From the NCBI RefSeq assembly GCF_001677475.2, contig NZ_CP015229.1: a stretch of 64,000 bases of DNA; one strand, written 5' to 3'. Both the position numbers and the translations under genes were made by a program. The notes under the pieces were generated by a model. The model made no database searches. It saw only the letters and a program-made list of their open reading frames with translations, and was not told where the DNA came from. This document shows positions 47,053 through 63,734 of this stretch, piece by piece. Each line of letters opens with the position of its first letter. Positions within the stretch are counted from its first letter, which is position 1. The stretch is from Escherichia coli (lineage in GTDB: Bacteria; Pseudomonadota; Gammaproteobacteria; Enterobacterales; Enterobacteriaceae).

Positions 47053-47806
47053 TTGCCTGCGCGTTTAAGCCAGCCTCGTATCAGGGGGCTGGTTTAGGCG
47101 TTTTGAATCAACGGGTTCCATGGTGTTGTTCATTTAATCACTGTTTTAGTATCAATTTTCAATAGTATCCTTTCATAGGACTACTCTGGATGCGTTCACC
47201 TTCATTGTCGCTCTAAGCAACTAGATCCTCAGAAATCTCCAGTTAGGTTGCATCCTTCCTTACACACTTTCCTGAAACTTCAGGGTAAGGTGAGAAAGCC
47301 GCCATCACTTTTTCTTATTCCAGCATCTAAATAAATTCCGAATTTTGCTATTAATATCGCTACCGCAATAAAAACAGATAGTAAAGAGAGTAATATATAC
47401 TTTAGTGATATGTTAAGAATAATTGATTGTTAACATATCTAATGGGATAAGATGTGTTTCTGTTAATGAAAATATTCAAGATTTATAGTTGATAATTAAA
47501 ATACACTCGATATCTCAGCCCTTTCTATGCAAGATGCAATTTTATAAGCTGTCCATTTTTTATATGGAGGCGGTAGCGTGTTTGTTACTCGTGATTTTAT
47601 TGGTATGGTGAATATGTTGGGATTGTTAAATACATAACGGCATATCAGTTCCGGTCATTGTAAATATGGGTAATTGCTTAATGTTATTAGTGATTACCGT
47701 TTGAAAGATAAAGAGTGCTGTAAAGCGGTGATAGACATTACATTCATGATTAAAAAACAGAACCTGTCAATAAATAATTCATTTATTAAAAAGGACGACT
47801 TCTATT

Positions 47807-48054: not shown

Positions 48055-51000
48055 ATGGAAGAGGCATTCTGGGCGGCAAGGCAGGGTGATGCCCTGCTGC
48101 ATACGTCGTTTATGGCAGATGTGCTGGGGGCAGTTGTAGAGGTTGCCGCCACAGCCCTGGTGGATGTTCTGGTTGTCGGAACCATGGCGGCGCTGGGCGG
48201 AGTTGAAGTGGCAACGCTGGGCTGCTCAACCATTTTAGCGATCGGTATAGCAACAGCGGTATTTATGTCGTATCAGGGCTGGAATGACCGAATCAGTAGG
48301 GAAAGTGAGCAACTGGCGAACTGGCTTTTCCCGCCTCAGATTGAAGGTTACATCCTCACCGGCTCTGGCGACACATGGATCAACAGCAAACCTGCCGCGC
48401 GGGCCGCGGCGACTGCGGCATCGCGGCAGGACATTGAGGCGCAGGAGGCGCAGGCGAAGGCGGAACAGGAAGAAGCGCAGCGTCAGGAGGATGCCAGAAC
48501 GTTCCTGGATGTGGCCGGGGAATATCTGGAAATGGCGGGGGCCATAGCCCTGGCGGTTAACCCGGTGACAGGGCCTGTGCTGATGTCCCGGGCGCTGCAC
48601 GACCAGCTCAGTACGGAAGAAGGGCGTTCTGAAATGGTGGATGGCGTGACACATTTTGTGTCGGAACTATGGCAGCCCACCGTGGCCAGTGCGGCCCCGG
48701 GCTCCACCCCGACCCCTGACGATAAAATCGACTGCCATAAACATCCCTCCTCACTGACGCAGTTTCTCGCACAAAAAAAAGCCGCCTTTCTGGATGACCC
48801 CCTGGGAACGGCCCTTAACCTGCTGAGTCCGGGCGGTATGCTGGAAACCGCCTTTCAGGGAGTGAATGCGGTTATTGGCAGCATCAGTAATCTGTTCAAA
48901 GGCGATGATGAACCGCCCGCAGCGGAATATATCGCGGAAGGCGCGCGGGATGTGCGTATCAACAGCCAGCCGGCGGCACGCAGCGGGGCACGCTGCACCT
49001 GCGAGGCCAGGGTGGTGAATGAGCCGGGGAACGGGGCGTTTGTGTCACCGGATGTCCGCATTGGCGGTCCGTTACTGGTGGTCAGGGATATCAGAAGCGG
49101 CAGGTCGCAGATAACCCTGGTGGCAACCGTGGCGCTGATGTTTCTTCGCCCGGGCAAAATGCTTTCTAAAATCGCCTGTTTTGCTGCCAGTGTCGGGATG
49201 GGGGTGATGACGCAGAAGGCCATCAGTGCCCTTCCGCATCCGGTCAATGCCGCCACCGGAGCCAAATATCTGGCCGATGACGATGATTTTGACTTCAGTC
49301 TGCCGGGCCACTTTCCGCTGGACTGGCAGCGCGTGTACAGCAGTCGTGACGACCGCACGGAAGGGATGTTCGGGCAGGGCTGGAGTGTAATGTATGAAGT
49401 CAGCCTCGAGCGCACGCCGGGTACTGCTGACGAAAACTGTATGACCTTTGTGTCGGGCATGGGACGACGTCTGGATATGGAGGCCGTGCTGCCGGGGAGC
49501 GGGTTTTACAGCCCCGGCGAAGGACTGGCAGTACGGCGGGGTGAGCAGGGGCACTGGCTTATCAGCAGCGATGACGGGCAGTTTTTTCTGTTTGAGGCCG
49601 ACCCGCGTCACCCGCAGCGCCAGCGGCTGAAAATGCTGGGCGACCGCAACAGCAACTGTCTGAATCTGTACTACGACGAGCTGGGGCGCATCACGCAAAT
49701 CAGCGGTGAACAGCAGCGTCCGTGCATCCGTCTGCATTATGAACTGGCGGCGCATCCCCGGCGGGTGACACAGATTTATCAGCATTTCCCTGAGATGGCT
49801 CCTTTACTGCTGCGTCGTTACCGCTATGACGAGGCCGGCGACCTGAACGGCGTGTACGACAGCACGGGGCACCTGCTGCGCGAGTTTGCTTACGACGAAA
49901 ACCACTGCATGACCCTGCACCGCCAGCCGGGCGGCGAAGGGTATTATTACCAGTGGGGCTGGTATGAAGGCCCGGATGACGCAGCGTGGCGGGTGACGGG
50001 GCACCACACGGACAGCGGTGAACAGTACCGGCTGGCGTGGAGCCTGGCGGCACGCAGGCTGTGCGTGACGGACGGGCTGGGGCGCACGCGTTATCATCAG
50101 TGGGACGCGCAAAATCAGGTGACGGCGTACCAGGACGAAGCCGGGCAGGTGACGACGTTCCGCTGGAGCGACGAAGAACGGCTGTTACTGGGAATGACCG
50201 ATGCGCAGGGCGGCAAATGGCGCTATGTGTATGACCGGCAGGGGCATATCACGGAGACGCACGACCCGCTGGGGCGGGTGGCACAGACACAGTGGCACCC
50301 GGTGTGGCACCAGCCGGAAACGGAGGTGGACGCGGCGGGGAACAGCTGGTGCTGTGAGTACGATGAACGCGGCAATCTTCTTGCGGTGACCGACCCGCTG
50401 CAGCAGAACACCCGGTATCAGTATGACCGCCACGGCCAGGTGGTGCAGATAACGGATGCGCGCGGGGGGAATAAATACCTTCAGTGGAACGAAGACGGGC
50501 AGCTCATGCGGCACACGGACTGTTCCGGCTCGCAGACGGCCTGGTTCTACGACGAACGCACGCGGCTGATACGGATGACAGACGCGCAGAGCCACAGCAC
50601 GCGCTACGGGTATGACGACAGCGGCCACCTGACGGAGGTGATACTGGCGGACGGCCGCACGGTGAATTACCAGTCGGACGCGGCGGGCAGGCTGGTGAAG
50701 TACACCAGCCCGATGGGGAGGATAACGCGCTGGCAGCGGGACGGGCAGGGCCGGGTGCGCAGCCGGACAGACGCGACGGGGCGCAGGACGGCGTTCGGGT
50801 ACGATGCCTACGGGCGTCTGGTCACGCTCACGAACGAGAACGGAGAAAGCTACCGGTTCCGCCATGACGTGCTGGACCGTCTGGCGGAGCAGATAAATCC
50901 GGACGGCTGCCGCCAGACGTACCGCTACAACGCGCTGAACGCGGTCACGGAAGTGGTGTTCACCGGGGACCGGGGCGGTGAAATCCGCCACCGGCTGGCA

Positions 51001-52737
51001 CGTGATGCGGCGGGCCGGCTCACGGCAAAGGAGACAGCCGATGGCCATACGGAATACGTCCATGATGCGGCAGACCAGCTACTGGAAATCCGCCGCCGAC
51101 GGTCGGATGCCGGGGAAACAGACGCACCGGAGATTATCCGTTTCAGTTACGACAGACTGGGGCGGATGCTGACCGAGGAGACGGCGCAGGGCGTCCTGAC
51201 CCATCAGTACGATGAACTCAGCAACCGGACAGCCACCACCTTTCCGGATGGCAGAACGCAGCGTCATCTGTACTACGGCAGCGGCCATCTCCAGCAGATA
51301 AATCTGGACCGGGAGGTCATCAGCGAGTTCACACGTGACGCCCTGCACCGGGAAGTGCTCAGAAGTCAGGGGCGACTGAGCACGCGGCAGCTTTATGACC
51401 CCGCCGGGCGGCTGAAGCGCAGGGAGACATACAGCGGGATGCGCGGGGTGGTACCGGAGACGTTCACGGACCGGCAGTACAGCTACAGCGGCGAGGATGA
51501 ATTGCTGAAGACGCGGCACAGCCGGCGGGGGGAAACGGATTACTTCTACGACCCCACGGGGCGCATCACGGCGTGCCGCTCGGAGGATGAGAGGTATCTG
51601 GCGAGCTGGCAGTACGACGCGGCGGGAAACCTGCTGGGGAGGCGCGCGGGGGAAAGGGCCACGGCAGAAAACAGCGTGGTGCCGTTCAACCGGCTGATGT
51701 CTTACCGTGGTGTGCACTACCGTTATGACGAATTTGGCCGGACGGTGGAAAAGGAGGGCCGGAGCGGCACGCAGAGTTACCGTTATGATGCGGAACACCG
51801 GATGGTGGAAGTGACGACAGCGCGGGGGACATACCGGTATGTGTACGATGCGCTGGGGAGGCGGACGGAAAAACAGCACATCAGCCCTGACGGTAAACCG
51901 TACAACCGGACGACATTTTTATGGGACGGAATGCGGCTGGCGCAGGAGAGCAGGCCGGAGGGAATAAGCAGCCTGTATATCTACAGCGACCCGGGGAGTT
52001 ATGAACCGCTGGCGCGGGTGGATAAGGCGGGCAAAGAGGGCCCGAACCGGATACTGTATTTTCACACGGATGTGAACGGTGCGCCGGAAGAGATGACGGA
52101 CAGTGACGGGAAAATCGTGTGGGAGACGGGGTATCAGGTCTGGGGTAACACGATACAGGAGAAGGACCACGGCGGGGTGGAGCAGAACCTGCGCTACCAG
52201 GGACAGTACCTCGACAGGGAAACGGGGCTGCATTACAATCTGCACAGGTACTATGATCCGGATGTCGGGCGGTTCATGGTAACGGACCCGATAGGGCTGG
52301 CGGGGGGACTGAATCTTTACCAATACTCACCGAATCCAATAAGTTGGATCGACCCGCTGGGATTAACAGGGGAGTGGGTTAATCCCAAAGATATTAATTT
52401 TTCTCAAAGAACAATATCACCTCATGATTATGCCGATATTATGCGTAATGGTGGTTGGGATTGGGACAGGTCTCCATTAAGAGTAATTGATATTGATGGG
52501 CAATTAGTTTCTTATGATAATAGGCGATTAGACGCAGCTCTAGAGGCCGGATTAGATAAGGTTAAAGTCATTAGAGTTGACCCTAATGCTCCTCATCCTG
52601 ACTCATCTACTGGAAAAACATGGTTACAAAAATTCCGAGAGAGATTTAGAGATCGAAGAAATATAAAGGCCGGTGGAATAGTACCAGATAAAGGATTAAA
52701 TTCTCGACCGGAAAGAACATCAAGAGGTTGCAAATGA
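48055..52737 (+). CDS. Full-length prePAAR/PAAR-Rhs (YD-repeat) polymorphic toxin with C-terminal ParB/Srx-like toxin tip
   Basis: 1560 aa. The AARQGDALLH prePAAR motif lies at 48073-48102. Two hydrophobic TM regions flank PAAR-like segments. A long GC-rich YD-repeat core follows. The core-end motif PNPISWIDPLGL has DPLGL at 52351-52365. An AT-rich 123-aa tip follows. Confidence 0.93.
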   Translation: MEEAFWAARQGDALLHTSFMADVLGAVVEVAATALVDVLVVGTMAALGGVEVATLGCSTILAIGIATAVFMSYQGWNDRISRESEQLANWLFPPQIEGYILTGSGDTWINSKPAARAAATAASRQDIEAQEAQAKAEQEEAQRQEDARTFLDVAGEYLEMAGAIALAVNPVTGPVLMSRALHDQLSTEEGRSEMVDGVTHFVSELWQPTVASAAPGSTPTPDDKIDCHKHPSSLTQFLAQKKAAFLDDPLGTALNLLSPGGMLETAFQGVNAVIGSISNLFKGDDEPPAAEYIAEGARDVRINSQPAARSGARCTCEARVVNEPGNGAFVSPDVRIGGPLLVVRDIRSGRSQITLVATVALMFLRPGKMLSKIACFAASVGMGVMTQKAISALPHPVNAATGAKYLADDDDFDFSLPGHFPLDWQRVYSSRDDRTEGMFGQGWSVMYEVSLERTPGTADENCMTFVSGMGRRLDMEAVLPGSGFYSPGEGLAVRRGEQGHWLISSDDGQFFLFEADPRHPQRQRLKMLGDRNSNCLNLYYDELGRITQISGEQQRPCIRLHYELAAHPRRVTQIYQHFPEMAPLLLRRYRYDEAGDLNGVYDSTGHLLREFAYDENHCMTLHRQPGGEGYYYQWGWYEGPDDAAWRVTGHHTDSGEQYRLAWSLAARRLCVTDGLGRTRYHQWDAQNQVTAYQDEAGQVTTFRWSDEERLLLGMTDAQGGKWRYVYDRQGHITETHDPLGRVAQTQWHPVWHQPETEVDAAGNSWCCEYDERGNLLAVTDPLQQNTRYQYDRHGQVVQITDARGGNKYLQWNEDGQLMRHTDCSGSQTAWFYDERTRLIRMTDAQSHSTRYGYDDSGHLTEVILADGRTVNYQSDAAGRLVKYTSPMGRITRWQRDGQGRVRSRTDATGRRTAFGYDAYGRLVTLTNENGESYRFRHDVLDRLAEQINPDGCRQTYRYNALNAVTEVVFTGDRGGEIRHRLARDAAGRLTAKETADGHTEYVHDAADQLLEIRRRRSDAGETDAPEIIRFSYDRLGRMLTEETAQGVLTHQYDELSNRTATTFPDGRTQRHLYYGSGHLQQINLDREVISEFTRDALHREVLRSQGRLSTRQLYDPAGRLKRRETYSGMRGVVPETFTDRQYSYSGEDELLKTRHSRRGETDYFYDPTGRITACRSEDERYLASWQYDAAGNLLGRRAGERATAENSVVPFNRLMSYRGVHYRYDEFGRTVEKEGRSGTQSYRYDAEHRMVEVTTARGTYRYVYDALGRRTEKQHISPDGKPYNRTTFLWDGMRLAQESRPEGISSLYIYSDPGSYEPLARVDKAGKEGPNRILYFHTDVNGAPEEMTDSDGKIVWETGYQVWGNTIQEKDHGGVEQNLRYQGQYLDRETGLHYNLHRYYDPDVGRFMVTDPIGLAGGLNLYQYSPNPISWIDPLGLTGEWVNPKDINFSQRTISPHDYADIMRNGGWDWDRSPLRVIDIDGQLVSYDNRRLDAALEAGLDKVKVIRVDPNAPHPDSSTGKTWLQKFRERFRDRRNIKAGGIVPDKGLNSRPERTSRGCK
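50912..52299 (+). repeat. 1388-bp direct repeat, copy A (rhs core 3' part)
   Basis: Aligns without indels to 60705-62092 at a constant offset of 9793 nt. Only four amino-acid differences separate the translated copies. Confidence 0.9.
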
Positions 52738-53168
52738 AAAATATTATTCAGTTATGGGAAGATGGTTTATTACCGATAAAAGATGCTATTTACTTTTCTA
52801 ACGGTGAATCTTTCCTTTGTAAAATAACATCTTACCCTACTCCTTGTATTGAGAAAAATGGTGAGTTTGATTTCTCTGCCTTTTATGAAAAAAATAAAGA
52901 TGAAGTTACTGATATTGATAAGTCTAGAGAAGTTAAATTAGCGAATAATTGCTATTGTTGCATTGGAGAAGGTAGTTATGGTTCTGAAGGATTTATCGCA
53001 TATCTCGATGAAAATAAAAACTTAGTTTGGGTTCTTTATTCCGAAGAATCTAATCCATTTATTAATATAACTGAATATACATCTGATATTATTATAGTAG
53101 AATCAAGTTCTAATATTAGACTAAGAATAAATATAAACAATCCAGTGGATTTAGAATTGGCATTTTAA
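52734..53168 (+). CDS. Cognate Rhs immunity protein (RhsI), family unknown
   Basis: 144 aa. Its ATG overlaps the rhs stop (ATGA at 52734-52737) and an SD aagagg lies upstream. AT-rich like the toxin tip. Confidence 0.75.
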   Translation: MKNIIQLWEDGLLPIKDAIYFSNGESFLCKITSYPTPCIEKNGEFDFSAFYEKNKDEVTDIDKSREVKLANNCYCCIGEGSYGSEGFIAYLDENKNLVWVLYSEESNPFINITEYTSDIIIVESSSNIRLRININNPVDLELAF

Positions 53169-53170
53169 AT

Positions 53171-53208
53171 AAAAAGCCGGGTGAAATTAAATCTTCCCGG
53201 CTTTTTTA
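53171..53208. terminator. Cassette hairpin H1 (bidirectional terminator shared by rhsI and the symE-like gene)
   Basis: aaaaaGCCGGGtgaaattaaatcttCCCGGCtttttt. Confidence 0.75.
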
Positions 53209-53212
53209 TTAT

Positions 53213-53542
53213 TTAACTCTCGTTCAGCACACTAAACATCCCGTTCCGCATCCCCTTAACCACCTGTTTAACCTGATAAAGTTCTTCCCGCAGCTCCTGC
53301 ACCTCGTCACTGTCAGCGATGATGGTCAGGTACCCCTCCGAAATCTTCACCGTGACACCCCGCCCGGTATCAAATCCCGCCTCAGCCAGCCAGTCGCCCT
53401 TGAGGTGCAGGCTGGGATGTTGTGAATAATACCGGGCTATACCTGTTGTGCGGTCCTGGTGGCGGGTTCTGACATAGCCGACTTTATAGCGGCGCTGGGT
53501 TTTGGAAATGGTGACTTCTGGCGTAATATCGTGTTCAGCCAT
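53213..53542 (-). CDS. SymE-family (AbrB/SpoVT-fold, type I toxin-like) protein, intact copy
   Basis: 109 aa. The segment HLKGDWLAEAGFDTGRGVTVKISEGYLTII aligns with remembered K-12 SymE [32 protein letters not shown]. An SD aggag lies 7 nt before the ATG. Confidence 0.75.
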   Translation of the reverse strand: MAEHDITPEVTISKTQRRYKVGYVRTRHQDRTTGIARYYSQHPSLHLKGDWLAEAGFDTGRGVTVKISEGYLTIIADSDEVQELREELYQVKQVVKGMRNGMFSVLNES

Positions 53543-53616
53543 GATTAACTACTCCTGTTAGTTGCTTGTGGTGAGCGGCTGTTACAGGCGGCAACCTGTA
53601 GCAGTCGCGTTAAATA

Positions 53617-53760
53617 TCAACGCATTACCTTCATTACCTGCTTCATCTTCTCCTGGGTGATCGCCATATCCAGAATACGGCAGATCACTTCCTGATCGTC
53701 TGCTTTAAGCTCATCAACCTGCTTACACAGTTCTTTTAACCGCTTGTTTTTTATATCGAA
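53617..53760 (-). pseudogene. 3' fragment of an unknown gene upstream of symE-like copy 1, apparently cut by the GC-rich fragment
   Basis: The minus frame reads ..DIKNKRLKELCKQVDELKADDQEVICRILDMAITQEKMKQVMKVMR* (stop at 53617-53619). There is no start codon. AT-rich sequence ends abruptly at about 53760. Confidence 0.3.
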
Positions 53761-54861
53761 AACATCGCGGAAGAAGAAGGTGTGCGCCAGGCGGCCTACG
53801 CGCTCAAGCTGTTGCAGTCGGACGGGGAACTGACCATCGCCAGTACGGGCAAGGATGACGCCAGCGGTAACCTGGTCACCAAACAGTATACGGTGAAAGG
53901 CCCGGTGATGCTGATGCTGACCACCACCGCCATCGATGTTGACGAGGAGTTACTCAACCGCTGTCTGGTGCTGACGGTGAACGAATCGCGGGAACAGACG
54001 GAAGCTATCCACGCGGCGCAGCGTTACGCGCAGACGCTGGAAGGACTGCTGGCGGCTAACGAAAAAAGTTACATCACGCAGCTTCACCAGAACGCGCAGC
54101 GGCTGCTGCGCCCGCTCAACGTGGTGAACCCGTTCGCCTCGCAGCTCACGTTCATGAGCGACAAAACCCGCACCCGGCGCGACCACATGAAATACCTGAC
54201 GCTGATCCAGGCGATCGCCCTGCTGCACCAGTACCAGCGGGAGATCAAGCGCGTGGAGCATCGCGGGCAGGTGGTGGAGTACATCGAGGTCACGCGGGAG
54301 GACATCGCCCTGGCGAACCGCCTGGCACATGAAATACTCGGGCGCACCCTGGATGAAATGCCGCCGCAGACGCGCAAACTGTTAACCCTGATCCAGCAAT
54401 GGGTGAGCGACAGCGGTCAGGCGCGTGAGGCGATGCGGTTCACCCGTAAACAACTGCGTGACGCGGTACAGTGGGGCGACACGCAGCTCAAGATCCACCT
54501 GGCGCGGCTGGTCGAAATGGAATATCTGCTGGTCCACCGTCTCGGGCTGACGTTCTGCTATGAACTGCTGTTCGACGGGGACGGCAGCGCAGACACCGCG
54601 CACCTGTGCGGGCTGATCGACGTACCGGAACCACCGTATGACGTCGCCCGGTCGGGGGAAACGGTGAAGCAGCTGGCCTCTGGTCGGGCAGTGGTCGGCG
54701 GTCAGTCGGGTAAGGAAAAAACCGCCTCAGACCAGACACCACGAGGCTTACAGGCCGGAGCGGTCGGGGCAGAGGAAAAAGCCCTGTTCCGGCAGAACGC
54801 AAAAAAACCGTCCCGCAATCATACTGCGGCCCGTCCGGGCCGGAGCAACACGGAAGCATAA
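53761..54861 (+). pseudogene. 5'-truncated gene of a GC-rich mobile element (large conserved protein, function not assignable here)
   Basis: The ORF reading ..IAEEEGVRQAAYALKLLQSDGELTIASTGKD... has no plausible native start. Composition changes sharply at about 53760. It is followed by a tyrosine recombinase gene. Confidence 0.55.
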
Positions 54862-54895
54862 GTACGACTTCATCCGGTCGGGGCAACGGCTGCAA

Positions 54896-54939
54896 TAGTC
54901 GGCCCCTGGTCGGCAGTCAGTCGGCGGGTAGTCGGGGTG
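54896..54939. repeat. Four tandem 11-bp iteron-like repeats containing GTCGG
   Basis: tagtcggcccc / tggtcggcagt / cagtcggcggg / tagtcggggtg. A fifth GTCGG lies at 54877-54881. The repeats lie between the truncated gene and the recombinase gene. Confidence 0.7.
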
Positions 54940-55065
54940 CGTAAAACCCCCGCAGGCCGCGCCCGGCAAGGTTCAGGCCATGAAGCGGTCGGCCTGCCTG
55001 AAAATCACTGTTCCATCCTCTGTTCTTCTCTCTGTCGTACCGTAATCTCAATCAGGACAATCATC

Positions 55066-56095
55066 ATGACAAAACCCATCCCTCCGGGGCCGGAGGAACT
55101 TTACCTCAGCCGCCAGAACCTGACGCAGCGCCAGTATGTGGTGGTGTGGCTGGAATACCTGACGGCACAGAACTACAGCGCGATCAGCGTAAGCGACTAT
55201 CGCGAACGGGTGTTACCGTTCGTGACATGGTGTGAGGAGCGCGGGCTGATGTACGCGCCGCAGGTCAGCCAGCCGCAGCTTGAAAGCTATCAGCGCCACC
55301 TTCACGGCTACCGTAAGGCGGACGGCCATCCGCTGGCGGTCAGCGGTCAGGTGGGCCGGATAAGCGCGATAAAAATCTTTTACCGCTGGCTGCTGAAGCG
55401 GCATGTGATCCTGTACAACCCCGCCGATCTGCTGGAACTGCCAAAGCCGGACAAACGGCTTCCGGCGCAGGTGTTCAGTAAGGGCGAGACGCGGCAGGTG
55501 TTACAGAGCCTTGATATCAACACGCCCGTTGGCCTGCGCAACCGGACAATCCTTGAGGTGCTGTGGAGTACCGGGATCAGGCGGATGGAGCTGGCCAGCC
55601 TGATGTTGTGGGATGTTGACACCGGGCGCGGTGTGGTTAACGTGCGGCAGGGTAAGGGGCGTAAGGATCGGGTGGTTCCGGTGGGCCATGTGGCGCTGGG
55701 ATGGCTGGCAAGACGTGCGACCACAGATGACGCGCCAGCGCGACAGTGGTCATCTGTTCGTGACGAAATACGGCAGCGGGATGAAACGCAACACGCTGAC
55801 GGCGATGGCAGGCACCGCGATCCGGGAAACGGCACGGATCGACAAACCGGGCGCGTGCCATATCTTCCGGCACTCGATGGCGACGCAGATGCTGGACAAT
55901 GGCGCAGACACGCGGCATATCCAGGCGATCCTCGGCCATGAGAAGCTGGAGACGACGCAGATCTACACGAAGGTGGCCATAAAGCCGTTGCAGAAGGTTC
56001 ATGCGCGGACGCACCCGGCAGAGAAGCGGCGAAGGGAAAAGCGCGTGCAGCAGCCGGACGAGGCCACCGTATCGCCGGACAGCCTGAAAAGTTAG
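55066..56095 (+). pseudogene. Tyrosine recombinase (XerC/D-like integrase), frameshifted
   Basis: MTKPIPPG...TGIRRMELASL...[12 protein letters not shown] is in one frame. After about 55710 the homology continues in the +1 frame ([36 protein letters not shown]). The catalytic Arg is therefore separated from the HxxR and Tyr residues. Confidence 0.8.
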
Positions 56096-56260
56096 GTGGC
56101 GATCCCTGTAAGGCCGTGGGGTGCGGTGCAGGGCAGACAACCGCCTTCCCTGGCGGTTGACTGCCCCCTGCCAGCGGCGTGCGCGGGGGTAAATGCCGTC
56201 CGCCCCGTGGAGGCAGCCGCGCCCCATGCGACCATGCAGCACGGGGCAAACGTCATTCAA

Positions 56261-56352
56261 CATAATGCGGATTATGCGCACTCTCGCCGGTCGGCAATGA
56301 CGGCGAACCCGATCCGCTGTGCGCGGCTCGTGTTCGCACAATCCGCATTATG
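56261..56352. repeat. Imperfect 20-bp inverted repeat with a 52-bp spacer
   Basis: cataatgcggattatgcgca (56261-56280) against the reverse complement of ttcgcacaatccgcattatg (56333-56352). 18/20 positions match, including 13 contiguous. Confidence 0.7.
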
Positions 56353-57005
56353 TCTGACGCCCCCGCGTTCAGCCCCGTGGTCCGTGCAGCGCAAAGCTTC
56401 GCTGGCGCTCCGCTCTGCTGCCGGGTGCGGTGTTCTTCTGTGGCCCCGCAGTCGCCGCCATCCCTGGCGGCTCCGGTGCCGTTCTGCGGCAGCGTCATCG
56501 TGTGGCAGTCAGTCAGAAAAGGGTGTCGGCCTGGCGGCCTCCGCTTGTAAGGGCTTTATGCCCGCCCGGCGTCGTCTGGCTGCGGCGGCTCGTGCCGCGC
56601 AAAAAGGCCGCGCGTCACTCGTTCCCGCCTCGCCAGCTTCCGCTGCCCGCCCCGGTCAGGTGTGGTCATGCAAAGGCAACCCCCGGTCAGGCAGCGGTGC
56701 CACAGAGCGCCGTTCCGTCGCTTGCGGACTCTCTGCCGCCCGCACCCGCAGACCCCGCGCCGTGGCCCCGCCATGCCGCCGGAGGCGTCCTGGCGGCCCC
56801 CCGTCACGGGGTGCCGGAAACGGACTTAGTGGAAAGCGGAATGACAGGCGGTGGTGGTGGTGCTATGGTGAGCGGGCGTGAAAATGCGCGTCGGGAAAGT
56901 CGGGTTAACGTGCTGTTAAATAAGTAAAAGGTGATAGCCGGGAAGCCAGAAACGGCGCGGGCGGTAGCGTGTTAAAAAGTGTGACCTGCACCGGATCGTT
57001 CCGAT

Positions 57006-57515
57006 GACCCGATAGGACTGCGGGGTGGATTAAATCTCTATCAATATGCGCCGAATCCGTTGAGCTATATTGATCCTCTTGGCCTTTGTAAATTAAGGGG
57101 AAGTAATGGGCGCTTCAGAAGTGCTCAGAATATTCAGGAAGAAATAGGCGGACTACCTAATTTTTCAGGGAAGACTCCAGGGCAAATACGACAAACTTTG
57201 CGTAATCGAGTTTATTCGTCGGTACAAGCGCATAGTGGTGGAGAGGTCTGGACAAAAGCATTACCTGACGGAAATACTGTTGCTGTGAGAATTGACCCGG
57301 CAAATCCTCGCTCACCTTCACATTATGCTGATGCTGTGCCTCATGCTCATATTGAAACAGTTCCAACGTCCAGTGTTTCTAATGGGAATTATCGCCCACG
57401 AGACGTGACTGGCAGGCATACTGCCACTGGTGGGATTTCTGACCGAGGAACGAATCCGAATCATAATGCTGATGTTCACATTCCAATGTCTCCGGGACGA
57501 TTCCCATATAATTAA
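57006..57515 (+). CDS. Orphan Rhs C-terminal toxin 1 (core stub + CT domain of unknown family); no own start codon
   Basis: [27 protein letters not shown] is followed by a 143-aa AT-rich CT. The frame opens just after a TGA, with only an internal TTG at 57060. Confidence 0.75.
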   Translation, partial: DPIGLRGGLNLYQYAPNPLSYIDPLGLCKLRGSNGRFRSAQNIQEEIGGLPNFSGKTPGQIRQTLRNRVYSSVQAHSGGEVWTKALPDGNTVAVRIDPANPRSPSHYADAVPHAHIETVPTSSVSNGNYRPRDVTGRHTATGGISDRGTNPNHNADVHIPMSPGRFPYN

Positions 57516-57526
57516 TGTGAGGTTTT

Positions 57527-57790
57527 ATGAATATCCGAAATCAATATAATGAAGCCTTAAATAAATTAGAAGTTGATGTTAATGATGGTTTAAGAGATTT
57601 AATAAACATATATTGTGTAGCTATTGATTCTTTTGAAAATGATATCGTTGACTCGATTGCTTTATACGTGATTGATATGGGAAATAAAGATACTTGTCGA
57701 TATCTACAAGAAATATTATCAGAGAATGAAGATCCTTATTTAGTAAAAGAATTTAATGCATGGATGAAAGAAATTAAGAAAAAATATTAA
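57527..57790 (+). CDS. Orphan immunity protein 1
   Basis: 87 aa. It begins 11 nt after the toxin stop with an SD gagg. AT-rich. Confidence 0.7.
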   Translation: MNIRNQYNEALNKLEVDVNDGLRDLINIYCVAIDSFENDIVDSIALYVIDMGNKDTCRYLQEILSENEDPYLVKEFNAWMKEIKKKY

Positions 57791-57793
57791 AAT

Positions 57794-57831
57794 AAAAGCC
57801 GGGACGGTTATTAAATCTTCCCGGCTTTTTT
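57794..57831. terminator. Cassette hairpin H2
   Basis: aaaaGCCGGGacggttattaaatcttCCCGGCtttttt. Confidence 0.75.
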
Positions 57832-57836
57832 ATTAC

Positions 57837-58070
57837 TTAACTTTCGTTCAGCACACTAAACATCCCGTCACGCATTCCCTTAACCGCCTGTTTAACCAGA
57901 TAAAGTTCCCTGCGCAGTTCCTGTACTTCGTTGTTATCCGCAAGCAGGATCAGACATCCTTCCGAGATCTTCACGGTGACGCCCGTGCCGATCTCAAATC
58001 CCGCTTCTCTCAGCCATTTTGCGCTGATTTTGATTACCGGCGTGTCGCTGCGGTTGGGCAGATAACCCAC
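57837..58070 (-). CDS. SymE-family ORF, copy 2, lacking a canonical start upstream of the conserved N-terminal segment
   Basis: 77 aa from an in-frame GTG. The frame stays open upstream to 58154 and encodes the conserved ISKTQRHCTVGY segment, but contains no ATG/GTG/TTG or SD there. Confidence 0.5.
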   Translation of the reverse strand: MGYLPNRSDTPVIKISAKWLREAGFEIGTGVTVKISEGCLILLADNNEVQELRRELYLVKQAVKGMRDGMFSVLNES

Positions 58071-58376
58071 GGTACAGTGGCGCTGTGTTTTGGAAATGAT
58101 ATTCTTATATTTAATCTGCTGATTAGATAGTAAAATTAACTTCGTGCAGATAGCTTACTTTATCAGGGTGCGGCGGTAGTGTATGAACTATGACGTGATG
58201 GTTTTAGTGATTTATATACGAAAATGACAGTACGATCCGGACTTCGAATAGATTGCGCGATTTGACCCGATAGGGCTGGCGGGGGGATTAAATCTCTATC
58301 AATATGCGCCTAATCCGTTAAGTTATATTGATCCACTTGGATTGTGTCCTAAAACTGACTTTAAATGGGGAAATCC

Positions 58377-59667
58377 CAGGGAAAGATCACGTAATGCTGC
58401 TTTTTTGTACTAAACAATTCGCATTTTATGTTTAAAAATTGAGATATTCCTCATTACATAAAGCTGTTTTTTATTGCTTATACATGATCAAATACTCCTT
58501 ACATAATTAAGGAGAACAAAATGGAACTTAAAAAATTGATGGAACATATTTCTATTATCCCCGATTACAGACAAGCCTGGAAAGTGGAACATAAATTATC
58601 GGATATTCTACTGTTGACTATTTGTGCCGTTATTTCGGGTGCAGAAGGCTGGGAAGATATAGAGGATTTTGGGGAAACACATCTCGATTTTTTGAAGCAA
58701 TATGGTGATTTTGATAATGGTATTCCTGTTCACGATACCATTGCCAGAGTTGTATCCTGTATCAGTCCTGCAAAATTTCACGAGTGCTTTATTAACTGGA
58801 TGCGTGACTGCCATTCTTCAGATGATAAAGACGTCATCGCAATTGATGGAAAAACGCTCCGGCATTCTTATGACAAGAGTCGCCGCAGGGGAGCGATTCA
58901 TGTCATTAGTGCGTTCTCAACAATGCACAGTCTGGTCATCGGACAGATCAGGACGGATGAGAAATCAAATGAAATTACAGCTATCCCTGAACTTCTTAAC
59001 ATGCTGGATATTAAAGGAAAAATCATCACAACTGATGCGATGGGTTGCCAGAAAGATATTGCAGAGAAGATACAAAAACAGGGAGGTGATTATTTATTCG
59101 CTGTAAAAGGAAACCAGGGGCGGCTAAATAAAGCCTTTGAGGAAAAATTCCCACTGAAAGAATTAAATAATCCAGAGCATGACAGTTACGCAATTAGTGA
59201 AAAGAGTCACGGCAGAGAAGAAATCCGTCTTCACATTGTTTGCGATGTCCCTGATGAACTTATTGATTTCACGTTTGAATGGAAAGGACTGAAGAAATTA
59301 TGCGTGGCAGTCTCCTTTCGGTCAATAATAGCAGAACAAAAGAAAGAGCCAGAAATGACGGTCAGATATTATATCAGTTCTGCTGATTTAACCGCAGAGA
59401 AGTTCGCCACAGCAATCCGAAACCACTGGCACGTGGAGAATAAGCTGCACTGGCGTCTGGACGTGGTAATGAATGAAGACGACTGCAAAATAAGAAGAGG
59501 AAACGCCGCAGAATTATTTTCAGGGATACGGCACATCGCTATTAATATTTTAACGAATGATAAGGTATTCAAGGCAGGGTTAAGACGTAAGATGCGAAAA
59601 GCAGCCATGGACAGAAACTATCTCGCGTCAGTCCTTGCGGGGAGCGGGCTTTCGTAATCTTGCCCTG
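58377..59667 (+). mobile_element. ISAs1-family element (Rhs-associated H-repeat), 1291 bp
   Basis: Terminal IRs are CAGGGAAAGATCACGTAA and TTACGAAAGCCC..(rc CAGGGCAAGATTACGAAA). A perfect 10-bp target duplication GGGGAAATCC lies at 58367-58376 and 59668-59677. Confidence 0.9.
58521..59657 (+). CDS. ISAs1-family (H-repeat-associated) transposase
   Basis: 378 aa, starting [51 protein letters not shown]. Matches remembered YbfL/YhhI-type proteins. Confidence 0.92.
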
Positions 59668-60010: not shown

Positions 60011-60391
60011 ATGAATGAAATAGATAAGATCTGTAGTGAACTTGGCGTACCAGTTGGTGATAAGTTTACACAAGATTGGGCTTATGAACTGCCTGAAAAA
60101 TATCGAACTAAAGAGTGGCTAAGTAAATACATTGCTGCATACTTAAACAATGGCTACTCCCAAAAAGGGAAGACTGAATTAATGACTTTAGCCCTTGATG
60201 TCTGTAATGATTTATTATCTTCTGGAGTACCCCCATCAGATGAGGTTATTATAAAAGTACTCAACGCCCTGCGTGATAATTACAAAAATCATATAGATCT
60301 TATTAATTATTGGTCCTTGGATGATGAATCTTTAGATGACAGTTTTGCATTAACTCCTGAAATAAGGGAGCTAAAAAGAAGATTGATTTAG
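60011..60391 (+). CDS. Orphan immunity protein 2
   Basis: 126 aa. It begins 17 nt after the toxin-2 stop with an SD aaggg. Confidence 0.7.
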   Translation: MNEIDKICSELGVPVGDKFTQDWAYELPEKYRTKEWLSKYIAAYLNNGYSQKGKTELMTLALDVCNDLLSSGVPPSDEVIIKVLNALRDNYKNHIDLINYWSLDDESLDDSFALTPEIRELKRRLI

Positions 60392-60413
60392 GATTATAAT
60401 ATTATTAAGTTAT

Positions 60414-60447
60414 AAAAAGCCGGGAATATAATCTTCCCGGCTTTTTT
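60414..60447. terminator. Cassette hairpin H3
   Basis: aaaaaGCCGGGaatataatcttCCCGGCtttttt. Confidence 0.75.
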
Positions 60448-60452
60448 ATTAT

Positions 60453-60677
60453 TTAACTCTCGTTCAGCACACTAAACATCCCGTCACGCATCCCCTTAAC
60501 CGCCTGTTTAACCTGATAAAGTTCCCTGCGCAGTTCCTGTACTTCGTTGTTATCCGCGAGCAGGATCAGGCAACCTTCCGAGATCTTCACGGTAACGCCC
60601 GTACCGATCTCAAATCCCGCTTCTCTCAGCCATTTGGCGCTGATTTTGATCACCGGCGTGTCGCTGCGGTTGGGCAG
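60453..60677 (-). pseudogene. SymE-family gene, copy 3, 5'-truncated at the junction with an rhs core fragment
   Basis: Identical to copy 2 apart from one residue, back to ..LPNRSDTP. Homology stops at about 60677, where rhs-core-like sequence begins. Confidence 0.75.
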
Positions 60678-60704
60678 ATGCTGCGCTGGCAGCACGACGG
60701 CAGA

Positions 60705-62518
60705 GCCAGACGTACCGTTACAACGCGCTGAACGCGGTCACGGAAGTGGTGTTCACCGGGGACCGGGGCGGTGAAATCCGCCACCGGCTGGCACGTGATG
60801 CGGCGGGCCGGCTCACGGCAAAGGAGACAGCCGATAGCCGAACGGAATACGTCCATGATGCGGCAGACCAGCTACTGGAAATCCGCCGCCGACGGTCGGA
60901 TGCCGGGGAAATGGACGCACCGGAGATTATCCGTTTCAGTTACGACAGACTGGGGCGGATGCTGACTGAGGAGACGGCGCAGGGCGTCCTGACCCATCAG
61001 TACGATGAACTCAGCAACCGGACAGCCACCACCTTTCCGGACGGCAGAACGCAGCGTCATCTGTACTACGGCAGCGGCCATCTCCAGCAGATAAATCTGG
61101 ACCGGGAGGTCATCAGCGAGTTCACACGTGACGCCCTGCACCGGGAAGTGCTCAGAAGTCAGGGGCGACTGAGCACGCGGCAGCTTTATGACCCCGCCGG
61201 GCGGCTGAAGCGCAGGGAGACATACAGCGGGATGCGCGGGGTGGTACCGGAGACGTTCACGGACCGGCAGTACAGCTACAGCGGCGAGGATGAACTGCTG
61301 AAGACGCGGCACAGCCGGCGGGGGGAAACGGATTACTTCTACGACCCCACGGGGCGCATCACGGCGTGCCGCTCGGAGGATGAGGGGTATCTGGCGAGCT
61401 GGCAGTACGACGCGGCGGGAAACCTGCTGGGGAGGCGCGCGGGGGAAAGGGCCACGGCAGAAAACAGCGTGGTGCCGTTCAACCGGCTGATGTCTTACCG
61501 TGGTGTGCACTACCGTTATGACGAATTTGGCCGGACGGTGGAAAAGGAGGGCCGGAGCGGCACGCAGAGTTACCGTTATGATGCGGAACACCGGATGGTG
61601 GAAGTGACGACAGCGCGGGGGACATACCGGTATGTGTACGATGCGCTGGGGAGGCGGACGGAAAAACAGCACATCAGCCCTGACGGTAAAGCGTACAACC
61701 GGACGACATTTTTATGGGACGGAATGCGGCTGGCGCAGGAGAGCAGGCCGGAGGGAATAAGTAGCCTGTATATCTACAGCGACCCGGGGAGTTATGAACC
61801 GCTGGCGCGGGTGGATAAGGCGGGCAAAGAGGGCCCGAACCGGATACTGTATTTTCACACGGATGTGAACGGTGCGCCGGAAGAGATGACGGACAGTGAC
61901 GGGAAAATCGTGTGGGAGACGGGGTATCAGGTCTGGGGTAACACGATACAGGAGAAGGACCACGGCGGGGTGGAGCAGAACCTGCGCTACCAGGGACAGT
62001 ACCTCGACAGGGAAACGGGGCTGCACTACAATCTGCACAGGTACTATGATCCGGATGTCGGGCGGTTCATGGTAACGGACCCGATAGGGCTGAGAGGCGG
62101 ATTAAACTTATACCAATACGCGCCTAATCCGTTAAGCTGGATCGATCCTCTTGGATTAAGTGCCGCCTCTGATTTACCTCAATTAAAAGGAAGATCCCCA
62201 GGGGCAATAGGTTCTATTCTTACTGATAATGGATTCAATTTAGATAAACAAACAAGTACCGGGAATCAGACTTGGAGCCACGCCGATGGTTCTAAAGTTC
62301 GTGTCGATCCCTATGGAAACCAAAGTATGACTATGAAAAACGGTGATCCATTACCGAAATCAGGAGCTAACGCACATGTGCATAAATATGATCCCGGTGA
62401 GATACCGCTGAATGACAGAGGCATTCCGAGTACAAATCCAAATGAAACACATATAGGGATCAGGAATCCAAATGATTATTCTACAAAACGAGGGCGGGCC
62501 CATGGGTGCGGCGTATAA
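60705..62518 (+). CDS. Orphan Rhs fragment 3: 1.39-kb core 3' segment (direct repeat copy B, 60705-62092) plus a distinct CT toxin
   Basis: The translation is near-identical to main Rhs residues from QTYRYNALNAVTEVVFT to VTDPIGL. It then diverges: [22 protein letters not shown] followed by a 119-aa CT from 62159. The 5' side (60678-60704) is a scrambled YD fragment in another frame. The only start is an internal GTG at 60746. Confidence 0.85.
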
Positions 62519-62530
62519 GGTAAGAAATTA

Positions 62531-62815
62531 ATGAGTGTTGAATATGTTATACATGTCGATGATAAAGTAGATAATTTACTTTCTTTTATTGTCGAGAGAA
62601 TAAAGGAAAATCAACCATCCTCTCGAATTAATACTGACGGTTCACTTTGGATTCCATCTAGCTATTCAAATTGGATTGATTTTTCAATAGAAGACCATGA
62701 GGATGGTTTTTTTATTGTAAATAATTTAAATGGAAGTGATAGAGATAAATTATTTTCACTGATATTTACTGCCTTTCATGAATTATCTATAAAATATGAA
62801 ATAGAAGAAGTCTAA
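62531..62815 (+). CDS. Orphan immunity protein 3
   Basis: 94 aa. It begins 12 nt after the toxin-3 stop with an SD aagg. Confidence 0.7.
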   Translation: MSVEYVIHVDDKVDNLLSFIVERIKENQPSSRINTDGSLWIPSSYSNWIDFSIEDHEDGFFIVNNLNGSDRDKLFSLIFTAFHELSIKYEIEEV

Positions 62816-62817
62816 TG

Positions 62818-62897
62818 AAAGCCGGGTTTTTGGACTGACCCCATAAAGTTGGACACCCAACTGATTAAGGTGCAGTCCAACATATTCCCGGCTTTTT
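62818..62897. terminator. Cassette hairpin H4, with its loop expanded by a 49-bp insertion
   Basis: aaaGCCGGGtttt[49 bp]acatattCCCGGCttttt. Confidence 0.6.
62831..62879. mobile_element. Miniature IS150-group/IS1397-like element (49 bp)
   Basis: TGGACTGACCCCATAAAGTTGGACACCCAACTGATTAAGGTGCAGTCCA has termini TGGACTG / CAGTCCA. It aligns with the first roughly 50 nt of the IS at 1044-1094 (TGAACTGCACCCCAAATGTTGGACA...GAAGGTGCAGTT). Confidence 0.6.
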
Positions 62898-62902
62898 ATT
62901 AT

Positions 62903-63136
62903 TTAACTCTCGTTCAGTACACTAAATATCCCGTCACGCATACCCTTAACCACCTGTTTAACCTGATAAAGTTCCCTGCGCAGTTCCTGTACTTCGTTGT
63001 TATCTGCAAGCAGGATCTGGCAGCCTTCCGAGATCTTCACGGTAACGCCCGTGCCGATCTCAAATCCCGCTTCTCTCAGCCATTTTGCGCTGATTTTGAT
63101 TACCGGCGTGTCGCTGCGGTTGGGCAGATAACCCAC
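62903..63136 (-). CDS. SymE-family ORF, copy 4, lacking a canonical start upstream of the conserved N-terminal segment
   Basis: 77 aa, differing from copy 2 at 4 residues. The upstream conserved but start-less segment is the same as in copy 2. Confidence 0.5.
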   Translation of the reverse strand: MGYLPNRSDTPVIKISAKWLREAGFEIGTGVTVKISEGCQILLADNNEVQELRRELYQVKQVVKGMRDGIFSVLNES

Positions 63137-63329
63137 GGTACAGTGGCGCTGTGTTTTGGAAATGATATTTTTGTATTTAACCTGCTGATTAGATAGTAAA
63201 ATAAACTTCGTGCAGATAGCTTACTTTATCAGGGTGTGGCGGTAGCGTATGAACTATGATGCGGTGGTTTCAGGAATGTACGTACAAAATCGATAGTACG
63301 ATCCTCCAATCAGGTAGATTTGCTGCCCT

Positions 63330-63734
63330 GATCCGATAGGGCTAAGAGGCGGGCTGAACCTGTATGCTTATGCGCCTAATCCGCTGAAATATATTGATCC
63401 ACTCGGATTAAAAAAAGAGCTCTGTAATGGAACTACTCGTGTGCGGCATTATACTAATCGTAAAGGTTCAAATGCGATTGCTGAAAGTGGGATAATTAAG
63501 GCGCATGATAACGGTCGTGTATATTTGGAACCTGCGAATAAAAAACCACTCAGTCAAGTAGACATAGAGGCGAAATATCAAATAGGTCGTGGGAAAGGTA
63601 GAGATTATGTGGATACAGATGTATCTAACGAGCAATTAGAGTGGGTAACAAACCCTCGATATCATATAGATGAATTGACTGTGAAAGGTGATATTATTCT
63701 TTCTGAAAATGCAAAAATAACTCGGCGTAAATAA
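63330..63734 (+). CDS. Orphan Rhs C-terminal toxin 4 (possible HYD1-type ADP-ribosyltransferase); no own start codon
   Basis: DPIGLRGGLNLYAYAPNPLKYIDPLGL is followed by KKELCNGTTRVRHYTNRKGSNAIAESGII.... The frame opens after the TAG at 63315-63317. Confidence 0.7.
   Translation, partial: DPIGLRGGLNLYAYAPNPLKYIDPLGLKKELCNGTTRVRHYTNRKGSNAIAESGIIKAHDNGRVYLEPANKKPLSQVDIEAKYQIGRGKGRDYVDTDVSNEQLEWVTNPRYHIDELTVKGDIILSENAKITRRK

Follow-up and report, generated by a model that had tools for sequence, protein, structure and literature searches.

It has long been known that rhs and cdiA genes are followed by arrays of orphan toxin/immunity cassettes, to which a role in competition and immunity at the strain level is ascribed. 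To our knowledge, the arrival of such cassettes has so far been explained only by unspecified horizontal transfer and homologous recombination. Here we analyzed a window of 64,000 nucleotides (nt) from Escherichia coli (assembly GCF_001677475.2, contig NZ_CP015229.1), in which a segment rich in guanine and cytosine (GC) separates the main rhs gene from the first orphan cassette. This segment, positions 53617-57005, is probably the fossil backbone of a plasmid-like integrative element that carries polymorphic-toxin C-terminal (CT)/immunity cassettes, i.e. the remains of a cassette shuttle. An intact unit of the module is about 6.5-7.3 kb long and comprises, in this order, symE and an RstR-like helix-turn-helix (HTH) gene (both on the minus strand), a gene for a primase/MCM-like helicase, iterons, a Xer recombinase gene, a palindrome, a spacer of about 650 bp, an rhs core-end, a toxin-CT and an immunity gene.

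Displacement of Rhs C-termini and activation of orphans reportedly proceed by homologous recombination, in models that are said to go back to Jackson in 2009 and Koskiniemi in 2014. There, as in the scheme discussed below, the core-end of an orphan recombines with the main rhs gene and new tips push the old ones downstream. The models name no vehicle, whereas here the tip appears to ride on a replicon with an 81-nt core-end.

Two systems had been brought up when this DNA was first annotated from its letters alone (below, the sequence-only reading). Integrons share with the module a tyrosine recombinase beside promoterless cassettes of the same direction and a site that is an imperfect palindrome, in which pairing rather than sequence is conserved and unpaired bases are placed asymmetrically. 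The module differs in that its recombinase is of the Xer type and lacks the IntI signature, in that there is one palindrome per 6.5-7 kb unit, beside xerC, instead of one attC per cassette plus attI and a single intI, and in that every unit has its own recombinase and replicase. Moreover, its cassettes are toxin-CT fragments which need fusion to a resident gene. The recombinase-associated immunity-gene arrays (rAID) of Bacteroidales and the polyimmunity loci likewise combine an XerC/D-like tyrosine recombinase with arrays of interbacterial immunity genes; XerC/D genes beside polyimmunity loci were reported with a speculated role (Zhang et al. 2012, PMC3482391). In contrast to these, the module cassettes keep their toxin domains after a DPxGL core-end or a VENN motif, aligned for fusion to Rhs or CdiA. 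Compared with rAID, the hosts are Proteobacteria, replicase, iterons, repressor and a toxin-antitoxin (TA) module are present, and the units are tandem repeats of a whole element. For integrons, the possible functional likeness is that of a recombinase and a folded palindromic site beside promoterless cassettes; the resemblance to either system is functional and not familial.

Integrative mobile elements exploiting Xer (IMEX) such as CTXphi, and plasmid Xer sites such as cer and psi, have the same 11-6-11 dif-like core as the module. Two inverted dif-like sites tens of bp apart are also found in the attP of CTXphi, and multimer resolution, as at cer and psi, is the likely role of the module site. 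The module encodes its own Xer recombinase and sits at rhs or cdiA, unlike IMEX, which have no recombinase of their own and integrate at the chromosomal dif by XerCD; unlike CTXphi it has a primase-helicase and not a rolling-circle protein as replicase. Actinomycete elements of the pSAM2/SLP1 type, archaeal MCM-encoding integrated elements and satellites such as P4 and the phage-inducible chromosomal islands (PICI) are small episomes as well and alternate between free replication and integration; a repressor and a tyrosine recombinase are combined in them with a helicase of the MCM type or a primase. Here the differences are the target, which is a 3' motif of toxin genes and not a tRNA gene, the toxin-CT/immunity cargo, the dif-like palindrome, and the lack of conjugation and packaging genes. 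By analogy, the module would come closest in its working to an integrative plasmid whose Xer site resembles cer or that of CTXphi, with cargo and docking tailored to toxin genes. A full-text search revealed no published account in which primase, xerC and palindrome form a module or in which such a module is linked to arrays of Rhs or contact-dependent inhibition (CDI), but much subscription literature was beyond the reach of this search and an earlier description is possible.

A conserved module behind Rhs and CdiA genes

Relatives were collected by a degenerate-pattern scan with one genome per species. Among the species-representative genomes at least 543 relatives of the replicase were found. 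The 69 best loci belong to Escherichia, Citrobacter, Scandinavium, Dickeya, Pectobacterium, Brenneria, Samsonia, Serratia, Photorhabdus, Xenorhabdus, Erwinia, Budvicia, Acerihabitans, Atopomonas and Pseudomonas. A tblastn analysis of 35 long loci revealed a uniform order of Rhs/CdiA, symE, HTH, primase, xerC and the next symE, with the unit commonly repeated two to three times at a period of 6.5-8 kb. The module follows an Rhs or CdiA gene in 27 of these loci; of the eight exceptions, seven begin within an array or include too little sequence upstream, and one (L070) is without an Rhs/CdiA match. In CdiA-linked versions a VENN motif replaces the rhs core-end. Tandem intact copies behind toxin genes are present in Escherichia, Pectobacterium, Photorhabdus, Xenorhabdus, Serratia, Erwinia, Pseudomonas, Ralstonia and Paraburkholderia. 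Among the strains with such tandem units are E. coli CUWW11, D6 and D7, Pectobacterium sp. PL152 and Xenorhabdus bakwenae SF857. The partner is Rhs in Ralstonia, TpsA2 in a plasmid record of Pseudomonas, a haemagglutinin in Paraburkholderia, where the module is tandem and has an ADP-ribosyltransferase cassette, and an FG-GAP repeat protein in Janthinobacterium, where Imm26 accompanies it; in Enterobacter and Salmonella plasmids it stands behind or beside CdiA genes. This recurrence behind toxin genes makes the suspected link between recombinase and array a real one and no coincidence. The opposite outcome, an accidental fragment of an integrative and conjugative element (ICE) or transposon at a position confined to this lineage, is contradicted by these comparisons.

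The backbone has a GC content of 57-63% even in the units of Photorhabdus and Xenorhabdus, whose genomes are low in GC. Many draft assemblies break within the module, as is typical of a multi-copy repeat. Adjacent units of four loci (L030, L043, L050 and L058) are 98.7-100% identical, cassette included. The start of the repeat coincides exactly with that of the main rhs core-end in the first three and lies within about 5 nt of it in L058, which places the left junction between element and chromosome at the core-end. In L001 and L008 the homology between units begins inside symE, and the last symE, ahead of ybgA, matches the copies in the units over its 5' part only. Mosaic breakpoints are located in symE, in the intergenic region between HTH and primase genes, in the spacer and in the core-end.

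Two small circular records contain the module. A record of 8,758 bp from Shigella flexneri SWHIN_104 (NZ_CP055112.1) equals one complete unit, in which the replicase is unannotated because the gene runs across the origin of the record. The second, from Lonsdalea populi N-5-1 (NZ_CP072857.1; 11,289 bp), comprises an intact backbone with DinJ/RelE, a second, decayed backbone, two toxin/immunity cassettes each starting at DPIG, a palindrome of the short class and a GC-rich spacer. In addition, a 63-kb plasmid of Leptospira carries the trio of HTH gene (minus strand), primase and tyrosine recombinase, with parA and parB immediately behind it; the strict palindrome pattern was unmatched in this plasmid. 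The two circular records, the conserved iterons described below and the Leptospira trio with parAB fit a replicon backbone.

The segment in the window is a decayed copy

The rhs gene of the window (48055-52737) occupies the rhsC position between kdp/ybfA and ybgA-phrB; the best identity of the kdp operon against 5,423 E. coli genomes is 97.8%. The GC fraction rises from 0.29-0.39 (52600-53400) to 0.60-0.73 (53800-57000) and is 0.32-0.46 beyond, in agreement with the jump from AT-rich to GC-rich DNA already described between symE copy 1 and the first orphan. By segment it is 0.618 in the primase remnant, 0.615 in xerC, 0.669 in the spacer and 0.617 in the rhs core, compared to 0.33-0.38 in the flanking cassettes and 0.516 in the rest of the window. 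Using megablast, the GC-rich segment was found in 62 of 5,426 complete E. coli genomes, at a median of 4 places per genome. The E. coli carriers are near-clonal: array and cassettes are 100% identical, and EC77 has the same two units.

The proposal to look for an intact copy at the same position of related rhs arrays led to E. coli CUWW11 (L001). Here an rhs gene at the same chromosomal site is followed by two head-to-tail units with the order toxin-CT, immunity gene, symE (minus), HTH (minus), a 'DNA primase' (plus) with the full 910 aa, xerC (plus), about 0.9 kb of non-coding DNA and the next cassette; the xerC gene of unit 1 is frameshifted. The units share 98.3% identity over 5.8 kb of backbone and carry different cassettes. 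The window is 96% identical to L001 at 53485-54630 and 88-89% identical at 54874-57076, and its copy aligns end to end with intact E. coli modules except for a deletion of 2,189 bp and one of 11 bp in xerC. In blastn, window positions 53485-53764 correspond to L001 5254-5533 and 53763-54630 to 7723-8590; at the junction 53763..53764 the 2,189 bp of L001 5534-7722 are missing. In intact copies the lost DNA holds the 5' part of the HTH gene, the intergenic region between the two divergent genes and roughly the first 614 codons of the primase.

Upstream of the junction, the last 48 codons of the HTH (Cro/CI, RstR-like) repressor gene remain on the minus strand (53617..53763) and are 48/48 identical to residues 85-132 of a 132-aa E. 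coli protein. The intact protein matches Pfam HTH_3 and reaches 78.9 bits with the NCBIfam RstR family, just under the cut-off of 80. The small minus-strand gene which, in the sequence-only reading, appeared to be truncated by an insertion is therefore the module's own HTH gene. It is indeed truncated, but by one internal deletion of a pre-existing module, which clipped HTH and replicase together, and not by an insertion.

Since HTH and replicase genes are cut to 3' stubs, the divergent regulatory region is gone and xerC is frameshifted, the window copy is dead and probably a scar that records the arrival of the neighboring cassette. Decay is also seen elsewhere, as the xerC frameshift in unit 1 of L001, a replicase truncated by IS66 in Pseudomonas and the fragmented loci L033, L056 and L057. 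Judged by these alignments, the GC-rich fragment is almost certainly a decayed copy of the conserved module. The early interpretation, by which an integrative element had decayed and its Xer-type recombinase was disabled, is in line with this; its alternative of an accidental passenger is not, given the same module at the same relative position in dozens of species.

A primase-helicase and an array of iteron-like repeats

The 3' remnant of the replicase gene comprises 365 codons (53764..54861, plus strand). This open reading frame (ORF), which reads ..IAEEEGVRQAAYALKLLQSDGELTIASTGKD.., had been recognized as a gene without a 5' end, and it aligns from about residue 615 of the 910-aa primases, with the 5' two-thirds gone. 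It retains the C-terminal third of the protein, namely the region past Walker B and a variable tail. The intact 910-aa protein matches Pfam Zn_ribbon_DnaG and Toprim_2 as well as TIGR01391 (dnaG domain/catalytic core). Its C-terminal half is strongly conserved with an invariant Walker A motif (AAGKS), and no family of the Pfam set searched matched it. There are at least 5,105 homologues at E≤1e-10, and the recent Pfam family PF27228 is assigned to them. An AlphaFold2 model of the C-terminal half (pLDDT 69.6) gave MCM/CMG subunits as best Foldseek matches in the PDB with E about 1e-9, a match that is partial and at the level of the fold, because the TM-scores are 0.35-0.43. With Zn ribbon, Toprim and P-loop helicase domains all present in the intact copies, we read the 910-aa protein as a DnaG-type primase with a predicted MCM-like AAA+ helicase, i.e. 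a putative primase-helicase replicase.

Downstream of this gene lies an iteron-like array of five GGTCGG repeats and a sixth (54877..54992, plus strand). The phased 11-bp repeats noted before correspond to GTCGG copies at 54877, 54898, 54909, 54920 and 54931 (spacing 21, 11, 11, 11), with the sixth at 54988, 57 bp further on. The spacing of 21, 11, 11, 11 and about 57 is kept in Ralstonia, Pseudomonas, Atopomonas, Erwinia, Budvicia, Dickeya, Xenorhabdus and Photorhabdus, and in an alignment of gamma- and betaproteobacterial copies the repeats are invariant islands amid diverged spacers. As they are invariant with fixed spacing in diverged surroundings, the repeats behave as iterons, and they may constitute a putative origin bound by the replicase.

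A Xer-family recombinase and a dif-like palindrome

The recombinase pseudogene is located at 55066..56095 (plus strand). Alignment to an intact copy demonstrated that a deletion of 11 bp at about 55707 causes the frameshift that had been placed near 55710; a second deletion, 15 bp at about 56052, is in frame. The catalytic HIFRH...LGH...IYT region is kept, split over two frames by the 11-bp deletion. The intact L001 recombinase scores 533.2 bits with the NCBIfam Xer-type subfamily NF002331 (cut-off 371), and its closest solved relative is E. coli XerD (1a0p, E 5e-39). On integron-integrase models it is far below the cut-offs, with 119.6 bits for TIGR02249 (cut-off 265) and 65 bits for NF011946 (cut-off 435). 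A TA pair of the RelE type accompanies xerC in some lineages. Four loci of Photorhabdus and Xenorhabdus (L022, L030, L054, L057) have an extra stretch of about 340 nt between primase and xerC. It resembles residues 19-131 of the N-terminal domain of XerC (42-44% identity) and may be an ORF for a duplicated SAM-like domain.

Behind xerC the window has an imperfect palindrome (56252..56360) composed of two inverted dif-like sites, a putative recombination site identified by dif match, fold and covariation. The left site, AGTGCGCATAA-TCCGCA-TTATGTTGAAT (56255-56282, minus strand), has 2 mismatches to the arms of E. coli dif and had no match in 100 shuffles. The right site is GTTCGCACAA-TCCGCA-TTATGTCTGAC (56332-56358, plus strand), and the inverted repeat first given as 56261-56352 is now more precisely bounded. 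The sequence-only reading had also suggested GCCGGG/CCCGGC hairpins for recombination; this hairpin sits between convergent immunity and symE genes, and the dif-like palindrome is the likely recombination site instead. The DNA fold of the palindrome has -33.6 kcal/mol (z -5.7). It is not an intrinsic terminator, because no T run follows it.

Using a strict pattern, the palindrome was detected after 53 of 68 xerC copies. In Rhs-type units it is found 160-250 bp past xerC, or past the RelE-type TA pair where this is present. There are two size classes; in each, 96% of the cells pair, with many compensatory changes across genera. This covariation was reached by none of 500 shuffles, and slid controls paired in at most 51% of the cells. 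In the short class, three positions of the apical stem each vary among 3-5 pair types. The left arm always contains extra unpaired bases. From this pattern the inverted symmetry is clearly under selection, be it via a hairpin or cruciform or via symmetric protein binding. Among 22 units, the correlation of identity between adjacent segments is lowest across the palindrome (Spearman 0.27 compared to 0.54-0.69 elsewhere). Neither palindrome nor spacer is matched by an Rfam family, the sole Rfam matches being small RNA (sRNA) families antisense to symE.

Two variants were seen. The left site of the window is without the GGG(G) bulge of its closest relatives (L002 3368-3479 and L008 14459-14570) and therefore has a canonical 6-nt center, which may be decay or a natural variant. 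An Enterobacter asburiae plasmid (L004 3630-3700) contains a different dif-like palindrome, CCAGACATAACGC...GCATAATGTCTGG; it is located directly after the CdiI gene and upstream of HTH, on the opposite side of the module compared to Rhs-type units.

The GC-rich spacer ends at the core-end

The conserved, GC-rich (0.67) non-coding spacer (56361..57005, plus strand) abuts the first base of the rhs core-end. The ORFs in 56096-57005 (about 0.9 kb) had no Pfam match. Spacer homologues show indels that are not multiples of three and are conserved in short GC-rich blocks. On these grounds, and with ORFs that look like GC-rich noise, we rejected a coding function, although without a formal codon-substitution test; the earlier description of about 0.85 kb of GC-rich DNA with no credible ORF holds. 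An origin as degenerate rhs core was rejected as well, as tblastn with the core gave no match at E 1e-5. Palindrome and core-end are separated by 541-706 bp, in most cases 650-706 bp, with three units at 1,022-1,382 bp, and the GC fraction of the spacer is 0.59-0.67 in most units measured, low-GC hosts included. The spacer ends exactly at the first codon of the core-end (DPxGL...DPxGL), and at VENN in a CdiA-linked Erwinia unit. As candidate functions, the spacer may supply accessory sequences to the recombination site or act as an insulator.

A blastn-short comparison of the spacer with the window gave matches of at most 19 nt (palindrome arms and chance matches, including 14 nt at the following motif). 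The 12-mer GGCGGTAGCGTG, described before as a leader motif that reappears at the end of the fragment, is indeed present there at 56960-56971 and also at 47569-47580 and, with one mismatch, at 63238-63249, i.e. 3 found versus 0.37 expected. The copy at 47569 is 486 bp upstream of the start of the main rhs gene, and the one at 63238 is part of the leader of an orphan without backbone. The motif is kept in the GC-rich spacers of L003 (Lonsdalea), L028 and L039 (Pectobacterium) and L067 (Erwinia), and in two places it resembles a Shine-Dalgarno sequence with the start codon of a tiny ORF.

The core-end itself (57006..57086, plus strand; 81 nt) is the only rhs homology that the module carries. It is common to the main rhs gene and belongs to a direct-repeat family (D3) with five copies in the window. 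A likeness of core-end DNA (codons of YxYxxNP) to the palindrome arms, seen by eye, was rejected, since this motif is constrained at the protein level.

symE, cassettes and further orphans of the window

symE copy 1 (53213..53542, minus strand) encodes a 109-aa type I toxin of the SymE family, whose homologue matches Pfam SymE_toxin, and is flanked by the main rhs immunity gene on one side and by the module on the other. The window is 96% identical to the L001 units at 53485-53764 and only 74-82% at 53164-53380; the 5' half of symE moves together with the backbone, its 3' half with the cassette. The Rfam family isrA matches antisense inside this copy (53343-53471, plus strand; 107.5 bits, cut-off 51), and a SymR-like match at 53537-53611 reaches 39 bits, under the cut-off of 61. 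Partial matches to the 654-nt model of the Shigella sRNA 'Ssr1' were obtained at 57760-58100, 60062-60707 and 62668-63166, each spanning the end of an immunity gene through symE. The curated 'sRNA' families isrA and Ssr1 thus appear to represent stretches of rhs arrays that are antisense to symE. Plasmids of Pseudomonas and Janthinobacterium (L006, L081) have a minus-strand gene of the 'antitoxin VbhA family' in the slot of the enterobacterial symE; what the slot calls for seems to be a small gene of the addiction type and not SymE in particular.

Following the core-end, the window contains an orphan toxin-CT (57087..57515, plus), an immunity gene (57527-57790, plus) and a 5'-truncated symE copy 2 (57837-58070, minus). 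The two plus-strand genes together (57087-57790) have a GC fraction of 0.378. With core-end, variable CT and immunity gene downstream of a full rhs gene, this is an Rhs orphan cassette, and the cargo 57087..58070 may have been delivered with, or displaced by, the module.

The remaining orphans (58.2-64 kb) have no backbone and are preceded by a 5'-truncated symE and an AT-rich leader of about 170 nt, which suggests a second, backbone-free route of orphan stacking. symE copies 2 and 4 (57990-58264 and 63085-63330) are truncated at the same 5' coding point, and the shared leader holds a degenerate, longer remnant of the rhs core (..YDPD..RF..DPIGL). Orphan 2 is interrupted by an ISEc1 (H-repeat) transposase gene (58521-59657), whose junction is shared with the 8.8-kb circular Shigella record (L002 4390-5526; 96.8% identical over 1.29 kb). 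The 3' 300 nt of the main rhs core (52000-52299) are 100% identical to 61793-62092 inside an rhs fragment (60746-62518), which points to recent gene conversion or duplication within the array. In L001, the CT/immunity cassette between the two units (10860-11640) shares 80% identity with the 3' end of a DUF4150 (PAAR-like) gene plus the adjacent gene in unrelated E. coli strains, so that the same cassettes circulate between Rhs and other effector scaffolds of the type VI secretion system.

Proposed mechanism and alternative explanations

We consider the module likely to be a mobile carrier of cassettes. The specific mechanism outlined here, which we infer in every step, has slightly less than an even chance of being correct. 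A circular element would replicate from the iterons by the primase-helicase under control of the HTH repressor, and the Xer recombinase would resolve multimers at the palindrome. Recombination between the palindromes of adjacent chromosomal units would excise one replication-competent circle. Entry would occur by a single crossover in one of two short homologies, the 81-nt core-end or about 300 nt of symE. A crossover in the core-end would fuse the incoming toxin-CT to the resident rhs gene and displace the old CT downstream as an orphan, whereas a crossover in symE would add the cassette as a new orphan; repeated events of this kind would produce head-to-tail arrays. The most far-reaching version of this proposal, in which the module is a self-replicating episome of Gamma- and Betaproteobacteria that docks on the DPxGL or VENN motif of a resident toxin gene, swaps or stacks cassettes and leaves with a cassette via Xer and the folded palindrome, is a tentative one, and we lean somewhat away from it as a whole. 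Such an episome would amount to an integron-like exchanger with a replicon and a recombinase for every cassette.

Several points weigh against the cassette-shuttle interpretation. Replication, excision and integration are deduced from sequence alone. Both small circles could be assembler artefacts from tandem repeats. Terminal overlaps of 38 nt were present in 2 of 41 short contigs, one in the core-end repeat and the other in the rhs core, so that a circle and a tandem repeat are indistinguishable. No gain or loss event was caught in E. coli, because the carriers are near-clonal. Neither a relaxase nor an oriT for transfer between cells was seen in the module, and an imperfect homology of 81 nt is a poor substrate for RecA. 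With respect to the palindrome, symmetric protein binding would also yield compensatory changes without hairpin extrusion, the strict pattern was unmatched in the CdiA-linked units of Enterobacter, Salmonella and Pseudomonas, and breakpoints in tandem units are not clearly clustered there. Its role as a recombination hot spot is suggestive only, the correlation test being weak with 22 units and with coding compared to non-coding sides.

Among the alternatives, most weight falls on an integron-like capture, in which the Xer recombinase would move cassette circles via the folded single-stranded palindrome and arrays would arise mainly by site-specific recombination. Two inverted dif-like sites of which 96% of the cells pair, with compensatory changes and with an asymmetric bulge or internal loop that is kept, would suit such a capture, as would the presence of one complete palindrome per unit, comparable to attC in arrays. 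Every combination of palindrome class and spacer type was seen, adjacent segments are least correlated across the palindrome, and there is a precedent in CTXphi, which integrates folded single-stranded DNA with inverted dif-like sites (review PMC3089051). However, the arrays run from the core-end to behind symE with no half-palindrome at either end, which argues against the palindrome as the chromosomal integration point. The outer arms pair over 6 bp only, window cassettes 2-4 have no palindrome, the recombinase is not IntI, and the replicase is a primase-helicase and not a rolling-circle Rep that supplies single strands. We regard this capture as unlikely.

Strict linkage to toxin loci could also mean that the host has domesticated the module and keeps it in place to amplify, rearrange or regulate the rhs/cdi array, with the circles as artefacts. 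The tandem duplications of 100% identity that include an expressed CT in L030 and L072, and the lack of transfer functions in the module, would be compatible with that. On the other hand, multiple diverged copies at different loci of one genome, mosaic backbones, a foreign composition even in low-GC hosts and the frequent decay of copies are difficult to reconcile with a host function, homologous trios occur on bona fide plasmids with parAB, and TA and SymE modules are typical of selfish replicons. Domestication is thus quite improbable.

Still less probable is a P4- or PICI-like phage satellite, or what is left of a cryptic prophage, mobilized by a helper phage. Its appeal is a repressor divergent from a primase-helicase, followed by a tyrosine recombinase, and the proteins match PHROG primase, integrase and repressor families. 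The 6.5-7.3-kb unit, however, contains no genes for capsid redirection, packaging or helper interference, it integrates at toxin genes and not at a tRNA gene or typical att site, and its recombinase is of the Xer type with a dif-like site; a megablast of the module against PLSDB, a search that did not extend to a phage collection, matched 9 records only. Finally, a decayed fragment of an ICE, transposon or prophage that landed by chance and is unrelated to the array would agree with the non-functional window copy and with a GC content unlike that of host and cassettes, but is hardly credible for a module that recurs in tandem in the same orientation and position after toxin genes of many genera, ends precisely at core-end or VENN, and itself includes the 'truncated neighboring gene'.

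Implications for Rhs and CDI loci

The preferred interpretation as a cassette shuttle would provide a defined and widespread element with replicase, origin-like iterons, recombinase, recombination site and addiction genes, whose sole likeness to its target is the exact motif where toxin tips are exchanged. It would account for GC-rich non-core DNA in the rhs loci of AT-rich or mid-GC hosts, for the breaks of draft assemblies at these regions and for the recurring annotations 'DNA primase', 'XerC' and 'SymE' beside toxin genes. The palindrome is a candidate for a new Xer-type site with constraints at the level of structure and is in this respect relevant to the mechanisms of tyrosine recombinases. 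The question of how cassettes are acquired becomes testable on a 7-kb unit and, if the interpretation is true, the module would be the long-sought vehicle for the acquisition of orphan cassettes in Rhs and CDI loci.

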